Position numbers and translations under genes: made by a program
Notes under the pieces: model-generated
Seen by the model: the letters and a program-made list of their open reading frames with translations, nothing else
Databases searched by the model: none
What the model was told of the DNA's origin: nothing
Sequence record: PV577657
DNA: 64,000 bases
DNA from: Escherichia phage vB_EcoS_MM-1
Strand: one strand, 5' to 3'
In this document: in pieces, positions 2,265-46,741 of the stretch
Layout of the letters: every line of letters starts with the position of its first letter
How positions within the stretch are numbered: position 1 is the stretch's first letter

Positions 2265-2270
2265 AGAATT

Positions 2271-2359
2271 TGGCGGAAGAAGTGGGAATCGAACCCACAA
2301 GGCTATATTTCAAACCGACAGATTAGCAATCTGCTGCAATACCGTTATGCTATTCTTCC
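2271..2359 (-). tRNA. tRNA-Ser (anticodon GCU), class II
   Basis: Acceptor GGAAGAA/TTCTTCC, anticodon arm GCAGA-UUGCUAA-UCUGU, long variable arm, T-arm GTGGG/TTCGATT/CCCAC. Confidence 0.6.
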
Positions 2360-2380
2360 GAATTTATAAGATATATTATA

Positions 2381-2902
2381 TTAGAAATTTAGCTTCATAG
2401 CAAGAAAATTTTTCAAGTTTTCGGTAGACATCTCATCCACATCTACGGGAGAAACAAAGCCGTTTAATTTTCTAGCAAATTTTTCACCCGCAGGATCGTT
2501 GTCTCCGACAGCTACCAATTTAAAAGGTAATAATTTCAGTTGCTTTAATAACGCTTTTCCTGGAGAAGAACCTAACATTGCCAGGGCTGGATAACCAGCG
2601 TTATGTAGCGCAACTGCCTTAAATACAGATTCAGCGATCAATACTACTTTTTCATCTCCATTGAGAGTTTCTAGTCCCCATACACACTGGGTAGTAGAAT
2701 AAGTAAAATATTTAGCTTCAAAGGGACACTTACCATGACCTTTTGGAGCAGAAGGATTATACGTCTGATAGCCTCGCAACATCCCGGAGAAGTCATACAA
2801 CGGGACTGTTAGCCATCCTTCCGGACTTAACCAGCAATGATATTTATCTGTATCAAATCCTCTGGATAAGAGGTGCTGTGTTAGCTCATCAACATTCATA
2901 TT
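2381..2902 (-). CDS. Toprim-domain protein (stand-alone primase-like/nuclease-like fold)
   Basis: Conserved Glu (IAES) and GDNDPAG DxD motif; likely start MNVDELTQ after GAGAGGAA RBS. Confidence 0.6.
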   Translation of the reverse strand, partial: NMNVDELTQHLLSRGFDTDKYHCWLSPEGWLTVPLYDFSGMLRGYQTYNPSAPKGHGKCPFEAKYFTYSTTQCVWGLETLNGDEKVVLIAESVFKAVALHNAGYPALAMLGSSPGKALLKQLKLLPFKLVAVGDNDPAGEKFARKLNGFVSPVDVDEMSTENLKNFLAMKLNF

Positions 2903-2904
2903 TG

Positions 2905-2990
2905 GTTCCTCTCTCAAATTTATAGATATATTATACAGAGAATTTAGCATTCAAGCAATCAAATTTTTTAACTTTTTAGAGGAAAATCAT
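2905..2990 (-). promoter_or_regulatory. T5-type early promoter
   Basis: Minus-strand TTGCTT -17- TATAAT, then conserved ATCTATAAATTTGAGAGAGGAA. Confidence 0.6.
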
Positions 2991-3069
2991 AGGGCACTTA
3001 AGGGTAGCAGATAAGTGGGGAGGACCAAAATTTGTGACCCCACTAAAAATCCGGGGGCAATTTTTAAAG

Positions 3070-4850: not shown

Positions 4851-4888
4851 ATACAGAAAAGCCCGCGCTCTCGTAGGAAACGCGGGCT
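4851..4888 (-). terminator. rho-independent terminator for SPFH gene
   Basis: GCCCGCG...CGCGGGC hairpin; T-run on minus strand. Confidence 0.65.
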
Positions 4889-12322: not shown

Positions 12323-12811
12323 TCACATCTCAGCCATTTCAGCTTCAGTAATAACTGTATTACATAAGGCGTCTACAGCTTCATTACCACTAATACCAGA
12401 GTGCCCTTTAACCTTAATAAAGGTAGGATTAGTATTATGAAAGTTGATATACTGTTGTGTTAATTTAAATGCTTCCTGCCAAAGTTCTAGATTAAGAGGA
12501 ACTTCACCATCTGCTTTCTTCCAGCCTTTCCTTTGCCAAGAAAACATCCAACTTTCCATGCCATTTTTGCAATAAGCAGAGTCAGTATAGATAGCAATTG
12601 GTCTATTATCTTTTTTAACAGACCAACGTAGAGCTTCTACAATAGCTGTGAGTTCCATCTCATTATTTGTAGTTTTAGGATTATAACCAGATTTAGAACC
12701 TAAACGATCGTCGTTATCATCATAGACAATAAAACCCCAAGCACCCGGACCTGGGTTAGACTTACAAGCACCATCTGTATAAATGTGGAAAACCGACATT
12801 ATACCTCCCAA
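12323..12811 (-). CDS. rnhA: RNase H (RNase HI-like)
   Basis: HIYTDGAC...GAWGF motif, conserved acidic residues; alternative start at MSVFHIY (about 12799). Confidence 0.8.
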   Translation of the reverse strand: MGGIMSVFHIYTDGACKSNPGPGAWGFIVYDDNDDRLGSKSGYNPKTTNNEMELTAIVEALRWSVKKDNRPIAIYTDSAYCKNGMESWMFSWQRKGWKKADGEVPLNLELWQEAFKLTQQYINFHNTNPTFIKVKGHSGISGNEAVDALCNTVITEAEMAEM

Positions 12812-25016: not shown

Positions 25017-25469
25017 ATGTCATTCACACAGCAAGAACTTTTAGATAACTTCCGATATGAAGATGGTAAGTTATTTAGAACTACAGGAAGAAATGCAGGG
25101 AAAGAATGTTGTGTTTCTACAGGTAACGGATATTATCGTATATCTCTAGGGAATAGGACTATGCTTCGGCATAGAGCAATATTTTTAATGCATCATGGAT
25201 ACTTACCTGATTTAGTAGATCATGTGAATACTATAAAAGGTGATGATCGTATTGAAAATCTTAGAGAGCAGACAGTATCCGGTAATCTAAGAAATATCAA
25301 ATATAAGAAAGGAATGCATGTTTACCCTTCTGGTAGTAAGAACTGGCAAGTGGTATTTACTATTAACCGTAAACGTATAGTTAAAGGAACATATGACAAC
25401 TATGAGGTTGCATGTTCTATGGCCAAGATGTTTAGAGGTCAATTATACGGTAGGGAATCAATCCAGTAA
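25017..25469 (+). CDS. HNH homing endonuclease (HNH + AP2-like DNA-binding)
   Basis: VDHVNTIKGDDRIENLR HNH motif; GGAGGTGAGG RBS before MSFTQQ. Confidence 0.8.
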   Translation: MSFTQQELLDNFRYEDGKLFRTTGRNAGKECCVSTGNGYYRISLGNRTMLRHRAIFLMHHGYLPDLVDHVNTIKGDDRIENLREQTVSGNLRNIKYKKGMHVYPSGSKNWQVVFTINRKRIVKGTYDNYEVACSMAKMFRGQLYGRESIQ

Positions 25470-26004: not shown

Positions 26005-28791
26005 GTGTTCTCAATCCTACAAGGTCATGCAGGATTTCATCGCGATTTAGCCACAGGCATTTGGCGAGAAGTTAAAGCAGAAGACTATCTTTTTGCTAAA
26101 AGATTTTCCTCAAAGCATCCTGAAGGTAAACCAGCTTCAATGCCCTTCAAGTTTGATGTAATTGATGAAGTTGATCCTCAAACCCTAGTAGAAATGCTCC
26201 CTCTTATGAGACGTTTAACGTCTGACCCTCATATCGTTGCGGTACGAGGTCGATGTCTTGCACCCAAAAATAATGTGCGGCGTAAGAAGGGCAACTTTAA
26301 TGTATCTAACCCAAGTCATATAATTGCAATGGACGTGGATGGTATTGTAGATACAGGTGGTTGTAACAAGTTTGATCTTGTTGGCATGGCTCGACATATT
26401 ATTAGAATGTTAAATAGTATTAGTGAGGATATGTTTCCTCTTGATGCAGGGTTTATTGCTCATGCATCGTCTTCGGCTGGGCTAAAACCAGGTATCCGAA
26501 TGCACTTAATACTAGAATCTAATGTTAAAGTAACTCAGGGTCAAATCAAATTCTTATTTACATCTATCAATGAAAGTAGTAGACAAAAGTATGGCTTTGA
26601 TATTGCCGACTTAGCTTATTACTCTTCCGTACAGCTCCATTATTTTGCAGATCCGTTATTTACCGATGGTATAGTAGATCCGTTTAAGGCGGAGGGTGCT
26701 TCACGTCTGGTATTTGTTAAGGGTTCTAAAGTAAACTTACCTAATAATCTGGTTGACTATGAAACAACTAGAGGTGAGTTTAAGGAGGAGTTTTACTCTT
26801 TACTCGATCAAATTAAAGGTAAAAAAGCTGCCTCCGATAAAGTAGAGGAAACTATCAGCGAACTAGAAGAAGCTGAGGATGGAGTGTATCTACGTATCAT
26901 ACCTAAACTCTATCACAGAGCTTTAGAGGATGGTGTTGATTTTGCATGGCTAGAAAAAGAAATCCGTCCAGCCTTATCAGAATATATTGCAACCAAAGAT
27001 AATAGTCGTAATATTCAAGATTACTTTAATAACGGTCGTAAACAGGCTCTGAAAGCATTTGTTAATAATTCTAAACGCGATATACCTGATGTTTTAAAAG
27101 GTATTCCACTTAAAAAGCTAGAAACTAACTCTCTAGAAACTGATAACTTCTTGAAATTAAATACTGTACCACCAGAAGGTTATATGACTTTTGTAAAAGC
27201 AAGTCTAGGTACAGGTAAAACTACGGCGGTTGTGCGTTGGTTAGATTCAGGAGTTATTAAAGGTAATTTCTTAGCAATTACCAATACTCGAGCACTGGTA
27301 TCTTCAAATGCTAAGAAATTTAGTGCAGGACAATATGATAAGTCTGTAGATATGCTTAATTTTAAGCGTGGTGCTATTGACCGTATGTCCACAACTATTC
27401 ACTCTTTGCATAAGTTCAAGAGTTTTATTGGTCAAATCGATGCAATCTTTATAGATGAATGTGATGCTGTAATGAATGACCTATTATTCGCCCCGGTTGT
27501 TAAACAACGTCGTGAATGTATTCAGGTTCTTCGGGATATTCTTGCAACTGCAAAAATCATTATATTATCTGATGGGGATATTAGTGCAGAAACAATTGAA
27601 GCATATGGTTCTTTAATTGAGTTTGATAAACCGGTTGCATTTTATAATCATCACCGAAAAATGCTATCAAAAGCTCATGCCTACGAGTTCCCTGATGAAT
27701 CCAGTATTTGGGTTGCACTTCAGACTTCTCTAGAGATGGGTGAGAAATCTATCCTAGTATCTGACTGTGGGCCGGATGAACTGAATGAGAAGGGCATGGC
27801 GTTGCGTCGTAATACGGGTGCGTTAGTTAAGGAAATCCACTCAAACTCTACGTCTGATGTAGATATTCGACGTATTCTGGATTACACAACTAATGAGTTA
27901 ATTGACCAACAAATTGATTGCTTATTATGTAGTCCATCCGTAACGAGTGGTGTTGACTTCAACTATTTTGATAACGTATTCGTTATTACTAGAACCAGTA
28001 ACCAAGCGCCAAACATGCGTTTTCAAGCAATCAGGCGCGACCGTGGTGCTCAGAACATTTATTATTTTATTGATAAATCTACGAGTGGATTCTCCGCAGG
28101 CTCTGAACAATATAATATTGATGAAGGTTGGCTGGAGTTAGCACAGCAATTATACGCACGTCGTAGGGAGCTGGAGTCTAGGAACTATACTAGTACTTTA
28201 CGTTATTACTTGCTTGATCAGGGTGCAACTATTGATATTTTCAGTGAAAGCTGGGGAACTATCGAAGGTGCAGGTAAAGAGTATACAGAAGAGCGAATCA
28301 AAGCCATTTTGTATTCAACTCCTGATTATTGTGCTCCACGCCATGCAGATGCATATGAAGCTAAACTACTTCTTGTTCGCTATTATCATCTTGAGTCTAT
28401 TAAAGATGTAACAGTTGAGCATGTTGAGCAATACATTAAGGATAAACCGAATGATCGAGCGGCATTCTTCCATAAAATGCACGAGATGTTCTGGGAAGAT
28501 ATTAAGAAGTGTTCAAATGTCACTATCAAACCATTCATAGAAGCTCTGAAAGGCAAGAAGAAAGATTTCTTCCTTAAAACAGGTCAGAGTGCTAACCCAA
28601 AATATGCCAGAATGTATCTTGGTATGATGGGTATTGGCAAGGATATGAACACGGAGAATATTGTAGACTGGTACAGAACTTATTGTAAAATCGAGTGTAT
28701 GCCAATTCCTTTCAAATTCATGACAGAGGAAGAGAAGGCTATGGCAGAAGAAGTACTGTCCGAACTTGGAGCAACTAATGAAGACGCATAA
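26005..28791 (+). CDS. putative replication initiator: AEP/PrimPol-like N-terminal domain fused to P-loop NTPase (helicase-like)
   Basis: N-terminal IAMDVDG and GIRMHLIL (AEP motifs I/II-like); C-terminal Walker A SLGTGKTT and Walker B FIDECD; start at GTG 26005 after AGGAG (ORF-track 25927). Confidence 0.6.
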   Translation: MFSILQGHAGFHRDLATGIWREVKAEDYLFAKRFSSKHPEGKPASMPFKFDVIDEVDPQTLVEMLPLMRRLTSDPHIVAVRGRCLAPKNNVRRKKGNFNVSNPSHIIAMDVDGIVDTGGCNKFDLVGMARHIIRMLNSISEDMFPLDAGFIAHASSSAGLKPGIRMHLILESNVKVTQGQIKFLFTSINESSRQKYGFDIADLAYYSSVQLHYFADPLFTDGIVDPFKAEGASRLVFVKGSKVNLPNNLVDYETTRGEFKEEFYSLLDQIKGKKAASDKVEETISELEEAEDGVYLRIIPKLYHRALEDGVDFAWLEKEIRPALSEYIATKDNSRNIQDYFNNGRKQALKAFVNNSKRDIPDVLKGIPLKKLETNSLETDNFLKLNTVPPEGYMTFVKASLGTGKTTAVVRWLDSGVIKGNFLAITNTRALVSSNAKKFSAGQYDKSVDMLNFKRGAIDRMSTTIHSLHKFKSFIGQIDAIFIDECDAVMNDLLFAPVVKQRRECIQVLRDILATAKIIILSDGDISAETIEAYGSLIEFDKPVAFYNHHRKMLSKAHAYEFPDESSIWVALQTSLEMGEKSILVSDCGPDELNEKGMALRRNTGALVKEIHSNSTSDVDIRRILDYTTNELIDQQIDCLLCSPSVTSGVDFNYFDNVFVITRTSNQAPNMRFQAIRRDRGAQNIYYFIDKSTSGFSAGSEQYNIDEGWLELAQQLYARRRELESRNYTSTLRYYLLDQGATIDIFSESWGTIEGAGKEYTEERIKAILYSTPDYCAPRHADAYEAKLLLVRYYHLESIKDVTVEHVEQYIKDKPNDRAAFFHKMHEMFWEDIKKCSNVTIKPFIEALKGKKKDFFLKTGQSANPKYARMYLGMMGIGKDMNTENIVDWYRTYCKIECMPIPFKFMTEEEKAMAEEVLSELGATNEDA

Positions 28792-29296
28792 ACCAATGCC
28801 TCCTATGGCATTTATCCTAGAAAAGCTTAGGTATGACGAAAGTACTGGGGACTTAATTTGGTTATCTGGCCCAAGGAAGGGAAAGGTAGCGGGCTCCAAA
28901 ATGAAAACTGGGAGACAGCTAGAGTTTATGATAAATGGGGGGCGGACAGCTTACTTAGCCCATAGAATAATCTGGTTTATAAAGACAGGTGAAGATCCTG
29001 GAGATAAAACTATTGACCATAAAGACGGTGATAGTTTAAACAACTTGTGGGATAATTTACGTAAGGCTACCTATTCCGAAAATGGAAAGAATAAGAAGTG
29101 TTCTACTAATTCTACCGGATTCACTGGAGTTGTAAAACGAGGTAATAGGTATATGGCCTACGCTTACTGCGATGGAAAGCAACATATTTTTGGTAGACGA
29201 GATACCCCGGAAGAAGCCCATCAGCTATACCTTAGGGGAGTTAAAGAGCTGTTTGGTGAATTTAATCCCTCGGAGAGATATGACAGTGAAGAATAA
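28778..29296 (+). CDS. HNH homing endonuclease
   Basis: IDHKDGDSLNNLWDNLR HNH motif; overlaps 3' end of upstream gene. Confidence 0.8.
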   Translation: MKTHKPMPPMAFILEKLRYDESTGDLIWLSGPRKGKVAGSKMKTGRQLEFMINGGRTAYLAHRIIWFIKTGEDPGDKTIDHKDGDSLNNLWDNLRKATYSENGKNKKCSTNSTGFTGVVKRGNRYMAYAYCDGKQHIFGRRDTPEEAHQLYLRGVKELFGEFNPSERYDSEE

Positions 29297-32095: not shown

Positions 32096-33067
32096 ATGAC
32101 CAATGTAAAAGACTTTATTAAACGCTGTCAAGAAGCATATTATCAAGGTATGTCTTTAATCTCTGACGAAGAATATGATCGTCTGATTAAAAGATTTCCG
32201 TTAGAAGAAGAGATCGGGCCTAAGGGCGATATTCCACATCTGTATCGTATGTATTCTTTACAGAAAGTTTATTATAATCGTGGAGATAAACCCCCGTTTA
32301 ACCCATTAGGTCAGGTAGAAACTGATAAGTTAGATGGTTGTGCAATTTCTCTGTTATATATTAATGGCGAATTTGTTCAAGCACTAACTCGTGGTAACGG
32401 TATTCTAGGGAATGATGTCACAAGCAACGTAAGATTGCTGAACATCCCTAAAAAGATTTCCCAAAAAGTACCTACTCAAATCACTGGTGAAGTTCTAATT
32501 ACAAAAGAAGTAGAAAATAAACGTAACTTTGCCTCTGGTGCTATTAACCTCAAAGATAGTGATGATTTTGTACAACGTATCGGAGAAGGTGGTTTAATCT
32601 TCGTTGCATATGGTATCCAGTGTTCTGCTGAATCTGTAGGTATTACAGAAGCATATTTAAAAGATATGCTTTGGCTGGAGAATGAGAACTTCTTAACAGT
32701 TGTTAATGTGCGTTCTTTCTTTAAATGGATTCCGACGGACGGTAAAGTTGTTCGTATTAATGATAACAACAAATTCTTCCGTGAAGGCTGGACTAATAAA
32801 TTCCCTCGTGGAGCATTCGCTATTAAAGAGGATGAAGAAGGCGAGATTACAACTCTTACTAAAGTTGAATGGCAGGTAGGAGCTTCTGGTAAAGTAACTC
32901 CAGTTGGTTATTTCGAACCGGTAATTATTGATGATGCTACAATTGTTAAAGCGACTCTTAATAACGTTGATTATATTAACTCTCTTGATCTAGAGATCGG
33001 TTGCCAGATTCGAGTGATTCGTGCTGGTGGTGTAATCCCGTGCATAGTAGAGCGAGTATATGATTAA
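32096..33067 (+). CDS. NAD-dependent DNA ligase, N-terminal fragment (adenylation + OB domains)
   Basis: KxDG adenylation motif (DKLDGCAISLLY); ends after OB-fold region; 323 aa. Confidence 0.85.
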   Translation: MTNVKDFIKRCQEAYYQGMSLISDEEYDRLIKRFPLEEEIGPKGDIPHLYRMYSLQKVYYNRGDKPPFNPLGQVETDKLDGCAISLLYINGEFVQALTRGNGILGNDVTSNVRLLNIPKKISQKVPTQITGEVLITKEVENKRNFASGAINLKDSDDFVQRIGEGGLIFVAYGIQCSAESVGITEAYLKDMLWLENENFLTVVNVRSFFKWIPTDGKVVRINDNNKFFREGWTNKFPRGAFAIKEDEEGEITTLTKVEWQVGASGKVTPVGYFEPVIIDDATIVKATLNNVDYINSLDLEIGCQIRVIRAGGVIPCIVERVYD

Positions 33068-33266: not shown

Positions 33267-34049
33267 TTGATGAAAATCGAAATTCCAACACAATGTCCCT
33301 CTTGTGGTTCTAAGCTAGATCTTGTCAACGGACAATTATTTTGTCGGAATAAGTCCAACTGTCCAGCGCAATCAAGTAAGTTAATTGAGAACTTCTGTAC
33401 AAAAATGAAGTTAAAGGGCTTTGGTCCAAAAACTATTGAAAAGCTGGAGCTGACGAAGATCTCAGAACTATTTTACCTAACCGAAGAAGATTTGGTTAGA
33501 GCCGTGGGTAGCAAGGTTGCCGCTAAGTTAATTAGCGAATTAAATACTAAAGTTCGCGGAGACATTGACTTTGGTTCAGTTCTCGGTTCTTTAGGAATCC
33601 CTCTAATTGGAGAGGTTGCAGCAAAGAAATTATCCCAAAATTGCACTAGCTTCCACGATGTGAAGGCTGACGGCAAGGCTGGAGAAAACTACAAAGCCTG
33701 GCTAAATTCCCCGCAAGGCAAGGATGTTATCGAACTACCGTGGAAATTCTCAACTGGTATTAAGGGCACTAAAGCTGACGTCATCATTACAGATGAATTA
33801 GTTGCCCAGCCAAATGGAATCGCGGTATGTATTACCGGATCTTTGCAAGATTTTGCAAATCGAACGGATGCAACAAACTATTTAGAAAGTCTAGGGTATA
33901 CGGTTAAGAAATCCGTTACCAAAGACGTAAAATACCTGATCTGTGAGGATGAATCAAAACGTTCTTCCTCATCTTATAAGAAAGCCGAAACGAATGGGAT
34001 AGAAATCCTGTCGATTAAAGAACTATTGGAGAAAAATAATAATGTCTAA
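33267..34049 (+). CDS. NAD-dependent DNA ligase, C-terminal fragment (Zn-finger, HhH, BRCT)
   Basis: Starts at LigA-type Zn finger CPSCGS...C..C; HhH-like GIPLIGEVAAKKL; 260 aa. Confidence 0.85.
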   Translation: MMKIEIPTQCPSCGSKLDLVNGQLFCRNKSNCPAQSSKLIENFCTKMKLKGFGPKTIEKLELTKISELFYLTEEDLVRAVGSKVAAKLISELNTKVRGDIDFGSVLGSLGIPLIGEVAAKKLSQNCTSFHDVKADGKAGENYKAWLNSPQGKDVIELPWKFSTGIKGTKADVIITDELVAQPNGIAVCITGSLQDFANRTDATNYLESLGYTVKKSVTKDVKYLICEDESKRSSSSYKKAETNGIEILSIKELLEKNNNV

Positions 34050-34825: not shown

Positions 34826-34860
34826 TAAGGGGAGGGGGCTATGCTCCTTCCCCTTTTTGC
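34826..34860 (+). terminator. rho-independent terminator
   Basis: AAGGGGAGGGGG...CTCCTTCCCCTT hairpin + TTTT. Confidence 0.65.
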
Positions 34861-34891
34861 ATTTAGAAGGCACGAAAGCGTGCAAAGGAGA

Positions 34892-36364
34892 ATGACCTTG
34901 TTTAACGTGCAAGCTGTAGTGTTGAAGATGCTTCTAGCTTCTGAACAGAAGCAAATAGCATTGGAAACATTCTCAAAACTGCATAAAGATCATTTTAATG
35001 ACGCTTTCTCCTCAATTTACCAAGCCGTCCAGAATTATTATAAAAAATATAACACAATGCCGTCCATTGACGCACTGATGCTTGAGGCTAATAGGAACGC
35101 CCGCCTTTCTCAAGCTCTAGTCGTTTTAGCTAACACTCAAATTCCAGAAGTGAGCATGGAACAGGCACTTGAAGTCCTAGAGGCCGAATATACACAGGAT
35201 TTATTCCTAAAGCTTCTAGAAACAGACGTGCTTCAAGATTTAACAATGCTGGATCAGGGAGAAATTCTCAACCGAGTTGCCTCCCTTCACTTAAAATTAG
35301 AAGAGAAAGTAACGAATACTGGAAAAGTATTCAACGCAGATAACATGCGTATTTTCCAGAGAGAAGAAGATACCAAACTGAACCTAATCGCTCTTGGTAT
35401 TTGTAATGAGTTCGACGCTCAAATTGGTTTAGCTCGCACAGAAACGTTACTGCTTGGTGGTTGGCGTGGTACTGGTAAATCCATTATCTGTTCAAACATA
35501 CAGGTTCAGCAATATTTGAATGGAGATATTGCTCCATACTTCTCAATTGAGATGAAAGAACATGAAGTATTTAGACGTAATCTAGCCATGCTAGCTGGTG
35601 TATCAGCACTAGCAATGCGTAATAATACTCTAGAAGGTGCAGCTCTGTTGAGACTAGCCAGAACTAGAGCTAGGATGTTCAACGGTGGTGAAGAGCTTTT
35701 CGATAACTTCGTTAAACAGTATACAATGGCTAAGATGAGTGATTTCTACGATATGGAGAGTAAGCTAATAGAAGGGTATGAGCTACATACTCCTATGATT
35801 ATTGTTTATGACCCTGAGTTGTCTATTACAACAGTTGACGTAGAATTAAATAAATTAGTTGCTAGATATGGTGATAAAGTTACAGTAGCTCTACTTGACT
35901 ATATTAACCAAACCCGACTTCCAGACTCTAAAACCATTGATATGTATGACTGGAAAGAACAGATGGTTGTTAGCTCGTCTTTCAAATCTATCTGCCAGAA
36001 ACATAACGTGGCTGGCGTAGCTCCTTACCAGATCGATCAAGACGGTAGAACACGTATGTCAAAGGGGATTCTTGATTCCGCAGACATGGCTGCTAATCTT
36101 AATGCTGCAAAAGCTGATAATGGTCAAGGTGCTATTATGTTTGACTTCGTTAAGACTCGTTCTTCTGATAGCGTGAAGTTTATGCCTAAAATGAACTGGG
36201 AAACTCTGCGAATGGATAACACTACCAACCTAGCAATGGAAGATATATCTCAAATGGAAGCTGAGTTCGTTATCCCTATTGAGAAGGATAAGCCGGCTCA
36301 ACCTAAACGTGCTAAGAAAGACAAAGCTGAAAATTCAACAGGTGAACAGGCCAGCGATATATGA
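34892..36364 (+). CDS. replicative helicase (DnaB/RecA-fold ATPase-like)
   Basis: Walker A GGWRGTGKS; start at MTLFNV after AAAGGAG (ORF-track 34841 overlaps terminator). Confidence 0.65.
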   Translation: MTLFNVQAVVLKMLLASEQKQIALETFSKLHKDHFNDAFSSIYQAVQNYYKKYNTMPSIDALMLEANRNARLSQALVVLANTQIPEVSMEQALEVLEAEYTQDLFLKLLETDVLQDLTMLDQGEILNRVASLHLKLEEKVTNTGKVFNADNMRIFQREEDTKLNLIALGICNEFDAQIGLARTETLLLGGWRGTGKSIICSNIQVQQYLNGDIAPYFSIEMKEHEVFRRNLAMLAGVSALAMRNNTLEGAALLRLARTRARMFNGGEELFDNFVKQYTMAKMSDFYDMESKLIEGYELHTPMIIVYDPELSITTVDVELNKLVARYGDKVTVALLDYINQTRLPDSKTIDMYDWKEQMVVSSSFKSICQKHNVAGVAPYQIDQDGRTRMSKGILDSADMAANLNAAKADNGQGAIMFDFVKTRSSDSVKFMPKMNWETLRMDNTTNLAMEDISQMEAEFVIPIEKDKPAQPKRAKKDKAENSTGEQASDI

Positions 36365-36894
36365 TAACACAGGAAAGGCTAAAAGAGTTATTTGATTACT
36401 CCCCAGGAACTGGGGAGTTTACTAGAAAAGTATCTAGAGGTAATCAGAAAGCTGGTAGTATAGCTGGTTCTTTAAGAAAAGATGATTATATATGTATATG
36501 GGTAGATGGAAAGCCTTACTATGCGCATCAACTAGCTTTTCTCTATATGGAAGGTTATTTACCTGAAGAAGTAGACCATATAAACCGTATACGAAGTGAT
36601 AATCGTTGGGTTAACCTTAAAGATTCTTCTCACCAAGAGAATAGCAGGAATAAAGCAGCTAAAAGTAAATCAGGGTATATAGGAGTTAGTTGGAATAAAC
36701 AAAGGCAAAAATGGCAAGTTCAACTAAGAGATACCAATAAAAAGAAAATATTCGGTGGATATTTTGAGTACCAGAATTTAGAATCAGCAGTAGATAAGAT
36801 TAATAATCTACGATTACAATTTCATGGGGAAAATGCTATTCAAGAAATATTCGACCCGTCTAATTATCCTGCATTAGAGGAGATAAATTCATGA
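36361..36894 (+). CDS. HNH homing endonuclease
   Basis: VDHINRIRSDNRWVNL HNH motif; overlaps helicase stop and primase start. Confidence 0.8.
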   Translation: MITQERLKELFDYSPGTGEFTRKVSRGNQKAGSIAGSLRKDDYICIWVDGKPYYAHQLAFLYMEGYLPEEVDHINRIRSDNRWVNLKDSSHQENSRNKAAKSKSGYIGVSWNKQRQKWQVQLRDTNKKKIFGGYFEYQNLESAVDKINNLRLQFHGENAIQEIFDPSNYPALEEINS

Positions 36895-37781
36895 GTAGAA
36901 TAACAGAATTACTTGATCTTAAGGGAATTGAGTATAAAGATACTGGTGGAGATATTTTAATCTGTTGCTTAAATCCATATCATGATGATAAACACCCAAG
37001 TTTGCGTATTGATCCTGAAACCGGGATTATGCACTGCTTGAGTTGCGGTTTTGGCAAAGGTATACCTAGTATTTATCATTATTTTAATGAGACTCAATAT
37101 AGACAATCTCCAAGACTATCCCAAGTACGTAAAAAGATTTCAGAGATTAGAAATGGATCTACGAATCTTGCAATCCCAGAATCTGCCTGCCTTTTCGAAG
37201 GTGATTTCCGAGGTATAAGTTCTAAGACCTTGAAGAAATATTTTGCTTTCCAACACCAAGAGAACTGGGAAGGCAGAATTGTATTCCCAATCACAGATGC
37301 TGTTGGACGCAATATCCTATTTTTGGGTCGTTCTATAAACAGTTCTGCCCCTCCTAAATACTTAGTAAAACCAAAACAGGTTTCACCACCAATTTTCCCT
37401 GTACGATATAATACTCCAGTTCTTATTCTAGTTGAAGGTATCTTTGATATGCTGAACCTAGAGGATAGTGGTATAGACTATGCTTCTTGCTGCTTTGGTA
37501 CACATCAGTTTACTTCAGACAACATTGCAGATAAGTTCAGTCCGTACATTATTGCTGGTGTTAAAGTTGTTGTTATCTTACTAGATAATGATGCTTCTGG
37601 TAATAAAGCTGCACAAGCACTGGCCAAGCTAATTCGTACAAAAACGCGTTTAACACCTGTAGTTGCTAACTTTCTTCTGCCTGAAGGTAAAGACCCAGGT
37701 GACTTAAATAAAGAAGAAATTGATATGTTAGCAAAACGTATTGAAATTTTAGTTGCTGAATCGCTTAAAGATTTGGTATAA
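36891..37781 (+). CDS. DnaG-type DNA primase (CHC2 Zn finger + Toprim)
   Basis: C-x2-H...C-x2-C zinc finger; Toprim EGIFD and LLDNDASG. Confidence 0.85.
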   Translation: MSRITELLDLKGIEYKDTGGDILICCLNPYHDDKHPSLRIDPETGIMHCLSCGFGKGIPSIYHYFNETQYRQSPRLSQVRKKISEIRNGSTNLAIPESACLFEGDFRGISSKTLKKYFAFQHQENWEGRIVFPITDAVGRNILFLGRSINSSAPPKYLVKPKQVSPPIFPVRYNTPVLILVEGIFDMLNLEDSGIDYASCCFGTHQFTSDNIADKFSPYIIAGVKVVVILLDNDASGNKAAQALAKLIRTKTRLTPVVANFLLPEGKDPGDLNKEEIDMLAKRIEILVAESLKDLV

Positions 37782-44922: not shown

Positions 44923-46741
44923 GACACTAAAATTTAGTAACGTTATGTCTTACGGTAAGGACATCGTAATTCATTTCGACAAGAATCCAGTTACTCAACT
45001 AATTGGTGGCAATGGGCTAGGGAAATCCACCATCGCTACGGTTATCGAGGAATTGTTTTATAACAAGAACTCACGGGGTATTAAGAAGGATGCTCTGTTC
45101 TCTTGGTCTTCTCCGAAAAAAGAGTATGATATGCACGCTTACTTCTCAAAAGATGAAGATGAGTATGAATTGCATAAAGTAGTTAAATCAACTGCTAAAG
45201 TAACCCTTATTAAGAATGGAGAAGATATTAGTGGACACACGGCGACCCAAACATACAAGATGATTGAAGAAATTATGGGTGGTGACTTCCAAACATTCAC
45301 CAAACTTATTTATCAATCAGTGGGTTCTAATCTAGACTTTCTAAAAGCAACAGATGCAACACGTAAGGCTTTTCTTGTCAACTTGTTCAATCAAGAACAG
45401 TACAAAGAAATGTCAGAAACTATTAAGGCTGACCGTAAAGAAATAGCAAATACCTTAAATAATTTGCAGGGCCAAATGGCTGTAATTACGAAAATTCTTA
45501 ATGGAAAGAATAACTTGGGAACTTTGCAGGAACCTGTAGAAGTACCGGAGTTTGATGAAGAGCCGTTAGCACAAGAACTTACTGAATCGAAAATTAAGGC
45601 GGCATTAGCCAAGTCTCAAGAGGCTAATATTACTAAATTGCGTAATTTGGACAAAGCTGTACAAGTTGCCGAACAATCTTTCGAGCCTTTCAAAAATTTA
45701 CCCGCGCCCACTGACCAAAATGAAGAGATCTCGAGTGTTACGCGTGACCTAACGATTGTGACCTCACGTGCGAGCGAAGTTAAGAAACGTTATCAGAAGT
45801 TCAAGCAAGAGGCTTCAAATACTGAATGTCCTACCTGTGGTACTCATCTGGATACAACTGCTGCGCAAAAAGCAATGGATATGGCTAGAACAGAATATGA
45901 TCCTCTGTTCAAAGAGAAGCAATCTCTTGAAGCTAAGCTAGAACAGTTGAAGAAGGAACAACTTGAGTACGTTGCGTATACTAGAGCAAAGGATGCTTTG
46001 GATAAGGCAGTGGTAGCTAGAGACGAGTTCAAAAATTCAATGAGTGATGCTTCTTTTGAAGAACTCAATGTGCAAATCCTACAGGTGCAAATCCGACAAT
46101 TAGAACAGGAAATAGCTGATGGACGTTCTAAGGTTGCAATTGCTAAAGAACATAATGCAAATATTGAGTTAGCCAATGCAAAATATAAGGCGAAACTAGA
46201 ACAGATTGAGAAAGCTGAGGCAGAAATGTCTGAGATTACATCCAAACTGGATGGAGTATCAGAAGCTGTTGCTGATCTCGATATTCTGATTGCTGCATTA
46301 AAGAATCTAGTAGGATATAAGCTAGAGCATAGTGTGAAAGTATTTGAAGAACTTATCAATAAATACCTTTCTATTATGACTGGCGGTAAGTTCGCACTTG
46401 GATTTGAACTTGATGAAACGAAATTGCAAGTAGTAATCTTCAATGATGGAAACCGTACCAGTATGGAGAATTGCTCTACTGGTCAGCAAAGTCGAATCAA
46501 CCTAGCAACTCTGTTAGCTATTCGAATGCTACTAACATCTATTAGTAAAGTTAATATTAATCTTCTATTCCTTGATGAAGTAATTAGCTTTATTGATACT
46601 AAAGGACTTGACACCCTTGTTGAATTATTAAATGAGGAAGAAAGTCTAAATTCTATCATTGTTTCTCATGGGCATACGCATCCATTAGCCCATAAGATTA
46701 CTGTCAAAAAAGATGCAGAAGGATTTTCCTACTTAGAATAA
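44903..46741 (+). CDS. SbcC/Rad50-like ATPase
   Basis: N-terminal Walker A GGNGLGKST, long coiled coil, C-terminal signature region; start MSKITIK overlaps SbcD end. Confidence 0.8.
   Translation: MSKITIKTLKFSNVMSYGKDIVIHFDKNPVTQLIGGNGLGKSTIATVIEELFYNKNSRGIKKDALFSWSSPKKEYDMHAYFSKDEDEYELHKVVKSTAKVTLIKNGEDISGHTATQTYKMIEEIMGGDFQTFTKLIYQSVGSNLDFLKATDATRKAFLVNLFNQEQYKEMSETIKADRKEIANTLNNLQGQMAVITKILNGKNNLGTLQEPVEVPEFDEEPLAQELTESKIKAALAKSQEANITKLRNLDKAVQVAEQSFEPFKNLPAPTDQNEEISSVTRDLTIVTSRASEVKKRYQKFKQEASNTECPTCGTHLDTTAAQKAMDMARTEYDPLFKEKQSLEAKLEQLKKEQLEYVAYTRAKDALDKAVVARDEFKNSMSDASFEELNVQILQVQIRQLEQEIADGRSKVAIAKEHNANIELANAKYKAKLEQIEKAEAEMSEITSKLDGVSEAVADLDILIAALKNLVGYKLEHSVKVFEELINKYLSIMTGGKFALGFELDETKLQVVIFNDGNRTSMENCSTGQQSRINLATLLAIRMLLTSISKVNINLLFLDEVISFIDTKGLDTLVELLNEEESLNSIIVSHGHTHPLAHKITVKKDAEGFSYLE

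Follow-up and report, generated by a model that had tools for sequence, protein, structure and literature searches.

Homing endonuclease genes are the main difference in gene content among T5-like phages (PMC10644984; PMC8594841). The T5 reference record (AY543070) places one of them, hegJ, between the replicative helicase gene D6 and the primase gene pri and labels it 'putative H-N-H-endonuclease P-TflX' (AAS77166, 69614-70147), the prefix 'P-' standing for putative. We analysed the HNH gene that occupies the same slot in Escherichia phage vB_EcoS_MM-1 (sequence record PV577657), using a stretch of 64,000 nucleotides that is called the window throughout. The window gene and hegJ have the same insertion site, ATGA overlaps with both neighbours, length (177 residues), first 34 residues and domain layout. 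However, they represent different allele types, A in the window and B in T5, and the two proteins are 65% identical in amino acid sequence overall. Two proteins encoded at other sites are as near to the window protein as hegJ is, namely T5 hegE/F-TflV (64% identical) and BF23 hegE (60% identical), and both have its HNH_3 + AP2 layout and EELN C-terminal tail. T5 hegE lies in the T5 early region and BF23 hegE beside rnh, which it overlaps by 4 nucleotides (nt), so that their targets are presumably different. We take the 'F-' prefix in the T5 record to mark an enzyme tested for activity.

Free-standing endonucleases of the T-even phages cut the gene next to their own insertion site in relatives that lack the endonuclease, and carriers have a different sequence where the cut is made. 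The 'intronless homing' of these Seg and Mob enzymes (SegB, SegF, MobE), whose genes lie between conserved genes or next to one, is the process that we propose here as well. For SegB, the endonuclease gene and its flanking markers are preferentially inherited in co-infection (PMC2330249). The Seg enzymes, however, belong to the GIY-YIG family and the Mob enzymes to another HNH group, and both were shown experimentally to be active in a T4-like host, whereas the window protein is known from its sequence. I-HmuI of Bacillus phage SPO1 (PDB 1U3E; isoschizomer I-BasI) is 22% identical to the window protein, for which the PDB gave no sequence-level match. Unlike I-HmuI, the window protein is encoded by a free-standing gene between two others and carries an AP2-fold domain. 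This two-domain combination, with AP2 as the specificity module of an HNH_3 nuclease, is that of the HNH-AP2 homing endonucleases, a class described mainly from cyanobacteria, ciliates and other phages; the AP2 domain of the window protein scores below the Pfam threshold. HNH-AP2 homing endonucleases have been proposed as the source of the plant AP2/ERF domains (Magnani et al. 2004, Wessler 2005, as cited in PMC5714182).

We consider it likely that the window gene is a free-standing homing endonuclease gene, borne by neither an intron nor an intein, and that its HNH_3-AP2 product homes via the start of the primase gene, with primase nt 49-75 as the candidate target.

An intact HNH-AP2 gene that overlaps helicase and primase

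The HNH gene is an intact open reading frame (ORF) with an ATG start (Table 1). A sequence-only reading of the window had described a gene that overlaps the helicase stop (ATGA) and the primase start, which proved true in every detail. Since the junction tetranucleotide ATGA is duplicated at 36891-36894, the insert measures exactly 530 bp. Over the 3.1 kb around the gene, the window matches Escherichia phage vB_EcoS_MM-2 without a difference (100% identity; PV577658.1, Tequintavirus; window position = record position - 31892). In that record the identical coding sequence, flanked by 'DnaB-like replicative helicase' and 'DNA primase', bears the annotation 'HNH endonuclease', and the gene is thus already in the databases, as a putative enzyme.

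Its identity as an HNH endonuclease, also claimed by the sequence-only reading, was borne out by Pfam HNH_3 (PF13392; 50.4 bits against a cut-off of 24.8, E 1.7e-13), which matched residues 53-96 over the whole 46-position profile, and by PHROG 99 'HNH endonuclease' (E 9e-66), so that a chance ORF can be set aside. The protein has 318 homologues at E<=1e-5. Six residues, D72, H73, D80, N81, N85 and N97, do not vary among 38 homologues, and the window protein has them all, as does each of the 21 alleles from this slot (codons D72-H73, 36574-36579; N97, 36649-36651). By analogy with I-HmuI, the Asp-His pair would act as general base and the downstream Asn residues as metal ligands. The fold, with its N-terminal strands and beta-beta-alpha-metal core, is also like that of I-HmuI, and by sequence, motif and fold the protein is a member of the HNH_3 / His-Me finger group 2 (I-HmuI-like). 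For the C-terminal domain, the AP2 profile (PF00847) gave a partial, below-threshold match (residues 104-130, 18.8 bits against a cut-off of 33.3), while a precomputed PF00847 match exists for many homologues. The AP2 likeness is clear only at the level of the fold, a three-stranded sheet on a helix that superimposes on solved AP2 domains. The enzyme is small and probably monomeric and, by analogy with I-HmuI and T5 F-TflII, may cut one strand only, at its homing site and not at the natural nicks.

Neither the HNH start (36361-36364) nor, at HNH-free junctions, the primase ATG is preceded by a canonical Shine-Dalgarno sequence, and in HNH-free phages the primase start occupies the same context as the HNH start in the window. 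At HNH-free junctions, primase is therefore probably translated by coupling to the helicase. The HNH gene would take over this helicase-coupled start, and its own last codons (..L-E-E-I-N-S) would supply primase with a new ribosome-binding site, GAGGAG, located 8 nt before the primase ATG. Every HNH type found at the slot retains GGAGGAG, and the C-terminal EELN[KS] tail, which encodes the GAGGAG, is common to paralogues at other sites. A promoter scan revealed no terminator-like site between D6, the HNH gene and pri, which suggests that they are co-transcribed, and only weak consensus matches. Having taken over one start and provided primase with another, the insert is probably of little cost to the phage.

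Distribution and exchange of alleles at the D6-pri slot

To score presence and absence, we used an 800-nt precise-deletion query, in which the last 400 nt of the helicase gene through ATGA were joined to the primase gene. The sample consisted of 58 full-length rows evenly spaced among 440 matching T5-like records. The deletion junction gave a single uninterrupted 800-nt alignment in 48 of these 58 records and two pieces 530 bp apart, with the insert present, in the other 10. Close loci in IMG/VR gave a similar picture, with the HNH gene in 9/28 and a direct helicase-primase overlap in 19/28. These counts agree with the statement of the sequence-only reading that helicase and primase are normally adjacent and that a free-standing, homing-type HNH gene of this kind varies in presence between close relatives. 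A junction-spanning query retrieved 71 INPHARED records with an HNH gene abutting primase. We reasonably estimate that about 16-23% of the ~440 sequenced T5-like phages carry an HNH gene at this slot; the type A allele of the window occurs in about 14 T5-like records. Both states are found in Tequintavirus (carriers T5 and MM-2, non-carrier BF23) and in Epseptimavirus (carriers S132 and JN-S202001, non-carriers GSW6 and Ob_P).

The polymorphism is precise. The 40 nt of helicase before the insert are identical in genomes with and without the HNH gene, and the boundaries of the insert are identical. Among close relatives, carriers and non-carriers alike, the helicase protein is 99-100% identical. 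Both the helicase and the primase frame of the window are uninterrupted, with 95-100% identity to their counterparts in HNH-free phages. Most of the distant relatives likewise have the two genes abutting, and no HNH gene was found at the slot in the more distant relatives, in which primase is <=72% identical. This distribution is classical for a free-standing homing endonuclease gene: the gene is absent in most relatives and, where present, keeps its catalytic residues, as opposed to being universally conserved and catalytically dead. In its organisation and distribution, the gene fits the homing endonuclease class.

One distant metagenomic relative (L059, primase 37% identical) carries a 253-residue GIY-YIG ORF (2265-3026, +) directly upstream of primase and overlapping its start. 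This would place a different endonuclease family in the same pre-primase slot; its Pfam score lies just above the threshold. Small ORFs between helicase and primase in two other distant relatives (L072 and L076) were considered as endonucleases and rejected, having no Pfam match.

The 21 HNH genes collected from the D6-pri slot fall into several types. Type A comprises the alleles of MM-2, VAH1, DaisyDussoix, S132 and NR01, type B those of T5 and most other phages, type B' that of JLBYU43, with a different AP2 domain, and type C those of T5_ev219 and NG_A1. The gene of vB_Sen_I1 (L107 1562-2095) is a chimera of a type A core, 97% identical to that of the window, and a type C AP2 domain. All 21 genes are full-length and have the first 34 residues in common. 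Between types A and B, dS (synonymous divergence) is 0.045 in nt 1-105 and ~1.5, near saturation, in nt 106-528, compared with 0.23 in the adjoining primase gene. Taken by parts, the window protein and T5 hegJ are 58% identical in the core (residues 36-100) and 55% in the AP2 domain. The ratio of nonsynonymous to synonymous divergence (dN/dS) is 0.26-0.33 between types and 0.03-0.09 within types, which indicates that the slot alleles are working genes under purifying selection. The type A allele is 98% identical in S132, a phage of another genus. On these sequence comparisons, the simplest reading would be that old, diverged cassettes have been exchanged over conserved ends.

The HNH gene of NG_A1 (L111 1562-2083) begins with MSRITEL, the N-terminus of primase, which points to recombination between the similar 5' ends of the HNH and primase genes. 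A primase origin of the HNH N-terminus (MITQE.., against MSRITE.. in primase) was considered and rejected, as the fusion occurs in NG_A1 alone and is taken as a single recombination event.

A recoded block at primase codons 17-25

The next comparison covered 21 alleles with the HNH gene and 24 without it, over 400 nt on the helicase side and 396 nt on the primase side, the sample having been enlarged from INPHARED records. Every non-carrier (24/24) has the same block at primase nt 49-75, GACACAGGTGGGGACATCCTCATCTGT, even in alleles that are 8-9% diverged elsewhere. The window block, GATACTGGTGGAGATATTTTAATCTGT, differs from it at seven positions, all synonymous. Six to seven synonymous changes within these 27 nt were found in each of the 21 carriers and in none of the 24 non-carriers, an association that is perfect in this sample (Fisher P 2.6e-13, in a test that ignores shared ancestry). 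All 21 carriers and none of the 24 non-carriers are changed at positions 51, 66 and 69; position 63 is changed in 20/21 carriers and position 60 in 17/21. On the helicase side, no HNH-linked differences were detected within the 400 nt compared. On the primase side, they are confined to nt 19-81 and peak at nt 51-75. Carriers show at least four haplotypes, with different bases at the same codons (e.g. CTC to TTA or CTT). In GSP044, JLBYU43, SP01 and NR01, primase nt 1-48 contain 0-1 differences and nt 49-75 contain seven.

An HNH gene joined to the unsubstituted block was not found in any record of the whole collection, the best match to a chimeric query (93.2%) being T5 itself. An IMG/VR scan for the unsubstituted block returned 19 contigs, all already in the sample. 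Within the 64-kb window, the unsubstituted block occurs nowhere else with <=3 mismatches, so that a second, ectopic target was not found there. Beyond the block, divergence in carriers extends over tracts that vary in length and reach ~300 nt in the window. Compared with HNH-free alleles, the window primase is 83, 90 and 88% identical in the first three 100-nt bins and then 97-99% identical; no flanking stretch other than these first ~300 nt shows such local divergence. The variable tracts look like co-conversion tracts. The pattern at nt 49-75 is the signature that would be expected if the enzyme recognises primase codons 17-25 and carriers recode them against self-cleavage.

We propose the following course of events. 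When a carrier and an HNH-free relative infect the same cell, the enzyme would recognise, and nick or cut, a target early in the relative's primase gene; GACACAGGTGGGGACATCCTCATCTGT, 49-75 bp downstream of the insertion point, is the strongest candidate. Repair by recombination with the carrier genome would then transfer the HNH gene, along with adjacent markers, to the recipient. The carrier itself would be protected by the 6-7 synonymous substitutions in its own block.

Protective haplotypes specific to each HNH type were considered and rejected, since haplotype A at nt 49-75 is common to types A, B and C. Just beyond the block, T78C, C79T and C81A (primase nt 78-81; 36968-36971) occur in 8/8 carriers of type A, type C or chimeric alleles and in 1/12 of type B; they may reflect allele-specific recognition, or linkage alone. 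At primase codon 30 (36978), inside the CHC2 zinc-finger motif, the window reads NPYH and the other alleles examined read NPDH (28 over this stretch; 45 over nt 1-120), a D30Y change. A cluster resembling that in primase is seen in BF23 rnh (L081 11993-12469 (-); window 12323-12799 (-)), which lies just downstream of hegE with the 4-nt overlap mentioned above. Compared with T5 rnh, ~17 differences fall in its nt 4-54, and beyond these the count drops to 1-3 per 90 nt. The example stands alone, however, and nt 4-54 also contain seven differences in MM-2, which has no hegE there.

Several points weigh against homing aimed at this block. All alleles with the HNH gene could descend from one old insertion with tight linkage to the substitutions. 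HNH types whose AP2 domains are only ~55% identical have the same protective haplotypes, which is unexpected if the AP2 domain reads the block. The association is based on 45 alleles and not on all ~440 genomes. A literature search gave no experimental report on the window protein or on T5 hegJ, which the T5 record labels as putative. Finally, the block forms a conserved hairpin, and the changes could reflect an altered selection on this hairpin instead of self-protection.

In all 24 HNH-free alleles, including those 8-9% diverged elsewhere, primase nt 46-82 (e.g. L002:3046-3082) form an identical 37-nt stretch with a 14-bp hairpin of -19.4 kcal/mol. In the homologous stretch of the window (36936-36972), the hairpin is lost (-3.2 kcal/mol). 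Alleles with the HNH gene have it weakened to -3 to -7 kcal/mol, except for H8 and L017 (probably SHSML-45), in which extra changes make a different hairpin of -12.4 kcal/mol. L027/L028, with a primase only 72% identical, keep the hairpin (-22.7 kcal/mol) with a compensatory A54G/U73C change. Five other lineages (L032/33, L034, L038, L060 and L076) also have a hairpin at the same codons, of another sequence, and no other 45-nt window of their primase gene is as stable. Many other distant relatives have no hairpin at these codons.

These data could be read as follows: the gene is a homing endonuclease gene, but the changes at nt 49-75 are the decay of a hairpin made unnecessary or harmful by the Shine-Dalgarno sequence that the insert supplies. 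The hairpin, in mRNA (or DNA), would perhaps be tied to the translation of a helicase-coupled primase lacking a Shine-Dalgarno sequence, and the true cleavage site would lie elsewhere, e.g. across the D6-pri junction that the insert splits. The strict conservation of the hairpin in HNH-free alleles, the compensatory change and the other lineages with a hairpin at the same place all fit such a reading. The same is true of the weakened hairpins of carriers other than H8 and L017, of the GAGGAG brought to a start without a canonical Shine-Dalgarno sequence, and of the direction of the substitutions, which go towards the AT-rich codons typical of the genome. Nevertheless, we think hairpin decay rather unlikely. 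The recoding is all-or-none, with 6-7 of ~10 possible synonymous sites changed in every allele with the HNH gene and no intermediate found, and it is far denser than in the nearer 48 nt, where several haplotypes have 0-1 changes. H8 and L017 appear to have rebuilt a different hairpin, which suggests that the structure is still useful and that its sequence must differ, and many distant relatives do without one. For the first three of these reasons, we favour self-protective recoding over hairpin decay. If the favoured reading is right, the endonuclease would target a block that is slow to drift through structural constraint, and carriers would recode this block.

Alternatively, the gene could be a remnant, domesticated as an accessory replication factor for the helicase-primase pair or decayed to an inactive, immobile leftover, and its tight translational embedding between two essential replication genes would suit such a role. 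This is highly improbable, however: the gene is dispensable, being absent in most relatives including the classical phage BF23; none of the 21 alleles is truncated, all keep their catalytic motifs, and purifying selection acts on them; and the cassette-like exchange, together with the near-identical type A allele in the other genus, argues for ongoing movement.

Neighbouring features, natural nicks and meaning for T5-like phages

Table 1. Positions in the window of the HNH gene, its parts and the features around it
Feature	Coordinates	Strand	Basis
Free-standing HNH-AP2 endonuclease gene (type A allele, D6-pri slot)	36361..36894	+	ORF, Pfam HNH_3, PHROG 99
N-terminal I-HmuI-like region and HNH (beta-beta-alpha-metal) core, residues 1 to ~103	36361..36669	+	
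C-terminal AP2/ERF-fold DNA-binding domain (predicted), residues ~104-155, three strands and a helix	36670..36825	+	
ATGA, helicase TGA inside HNH start context: ...GATATATGATAACA...	36361..36364	+	sequence
ATGA, HNH TGA overlapping primase ATG: ...AATTCATGAGTAG...	36891..36894	+	sequence
GAGGAG in the last HNH codons, putative Shine-Dalgarno sequence of primase	36877..36882	+	
DnaB-like replicative helicase (T5 D6), upstream host gene	34841..36364	+	Pfam DnaB_C
DnaG-type primase, downstream host gene	36891..37781	+	Pfam Zn_ribbon_DnaG (CHC2 zinc finger) + Toprim
Primase nt 49-75, codons 17-25 (start of CHC2 zinc finger), substituted version; predicted cleavage site in self-protected form	36939..36965	+	
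HNH_3 gene upstream of origin-binding protein; absent from T5	25017-25469	+	
HNH_3 gene downstream of origin-binding protein; 97.7% identical to T5 hegI (P-TflIX)	28778-29296	+	
Origin-binding protein (obp)	26005-28791		

The sequence-only reading had placed two further HNH genes beside the initiator and had described the replication module as rich in such genes. Two HNH_3 ORFs do flank the gene of the origin-binding protein (Table 1), which gives the module of the window phage three HNH genes that are variably present in T5 and BF23; BF23 has neither of the two at obp. The proteins encoded beside obp are only 27-31% identical to the one between helicase and primase.

The same reading had offered these HNH enzymes as makers of the site-specific nicks of T5-type genomes, and this part did not hold. 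The consensus of the major T5 nicks is 5'-R/GCGCRGG (PMC3517423), and sciA and sciB, which affect nicking, are reported to map to the late region (PMC3517423, as a secondary citation). RGCGCRGG has six matches in the window against 1.9 expected. Two of them, 4862-4869 and 45701-45708, both (-), are homologous to annotated major interruptions of T5 (39746/7 and 78573/4 (D13)), and the second, 8.8 kb away, is the match nearest the HNH gene. The enzyme class would allow for nicking, since I-HmuI and I-BasI act on one strand (PMC3017599) and T5 F-TflII reportedly makes single-strand breaks (PMC6105707), and T5 has both nicks and an HNH gene at D6-pri. Even so, the notion that the window enzyme and the two encoded beside obp make the natural interruptions has next to no probability, because BF23 is reported to be nicked like T5 (PMC10644984) with D6 and pri overlapping directly and no HNH gene flanking obp, ~80% of T5-like genomes have no HNH gene at D6-pri, sciA and sciB are reported from the late region whereas the HNH gene belongs to the early D-region, and neither the HNH gene nor its flanks contain the nick consensus, the putative recognition block itself having no GCGC. 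BF23 gene content, map position and the location of the consensus thus make all three HNH genes of the replication module poor candidates for the natural nicking enzyme, and they drop off the short list for it.

Two other features upstream of the HNH gene were recorded. The NAD-dependent DNA ligase is split over two ORFs (+), one with adenylation and OB domains (32096-33067) and one with HhH and BRCT domains (33267-34049). They lie ~200 bp apart, like T5 ligA/ligB, and the T5 record annotates two promoters in the gap. A strong terminator-like hairpin after D5 (34827-34855; 13 pairs followed by a run of T) extends across the annotated helicase start codon, the ATG at 34841. The ATG at 34892, preceded by AAAGGAGA, looks the better start, and the helicase matches of some relatives begin only around residue 20.

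The HNH gene is in itself of small importance, as homing genes are known in T5-like phages and this one was already annotated. What is new here is a testable prediction of the target, the shuffling of cassettes among alleles and the conserved hairpin at the start of primase. The predicted 27-bp recognition block would be one for the HNH-AP2 family, and enzymes that may cut rarely, and on one strand, are possible tools.

More tentatively, the D6-pri slot could be a long-lived battleground, in which modular HNH-AP2 alleles (A, B, B', C and chimeras) are swapped over shared 5' and 3' ends and are all aimed at the primase hairpin, carriers escaping by 6-7 silent changes and at least one lineage, H8 and L017, rebuilding a hairpin of different sequence. 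If so, T78C/C79T/C81A could mark allele-specific recognition by endonucleases competing at one locus, like I-HmuI and I-HmuII. The primase hairpin may be the reason why such genes settle preferentially at this slot. The first ~300 nt of primase appear to be a gene-conversion zone, which calls for caution in T5-like phylogenies and in phage engineering.

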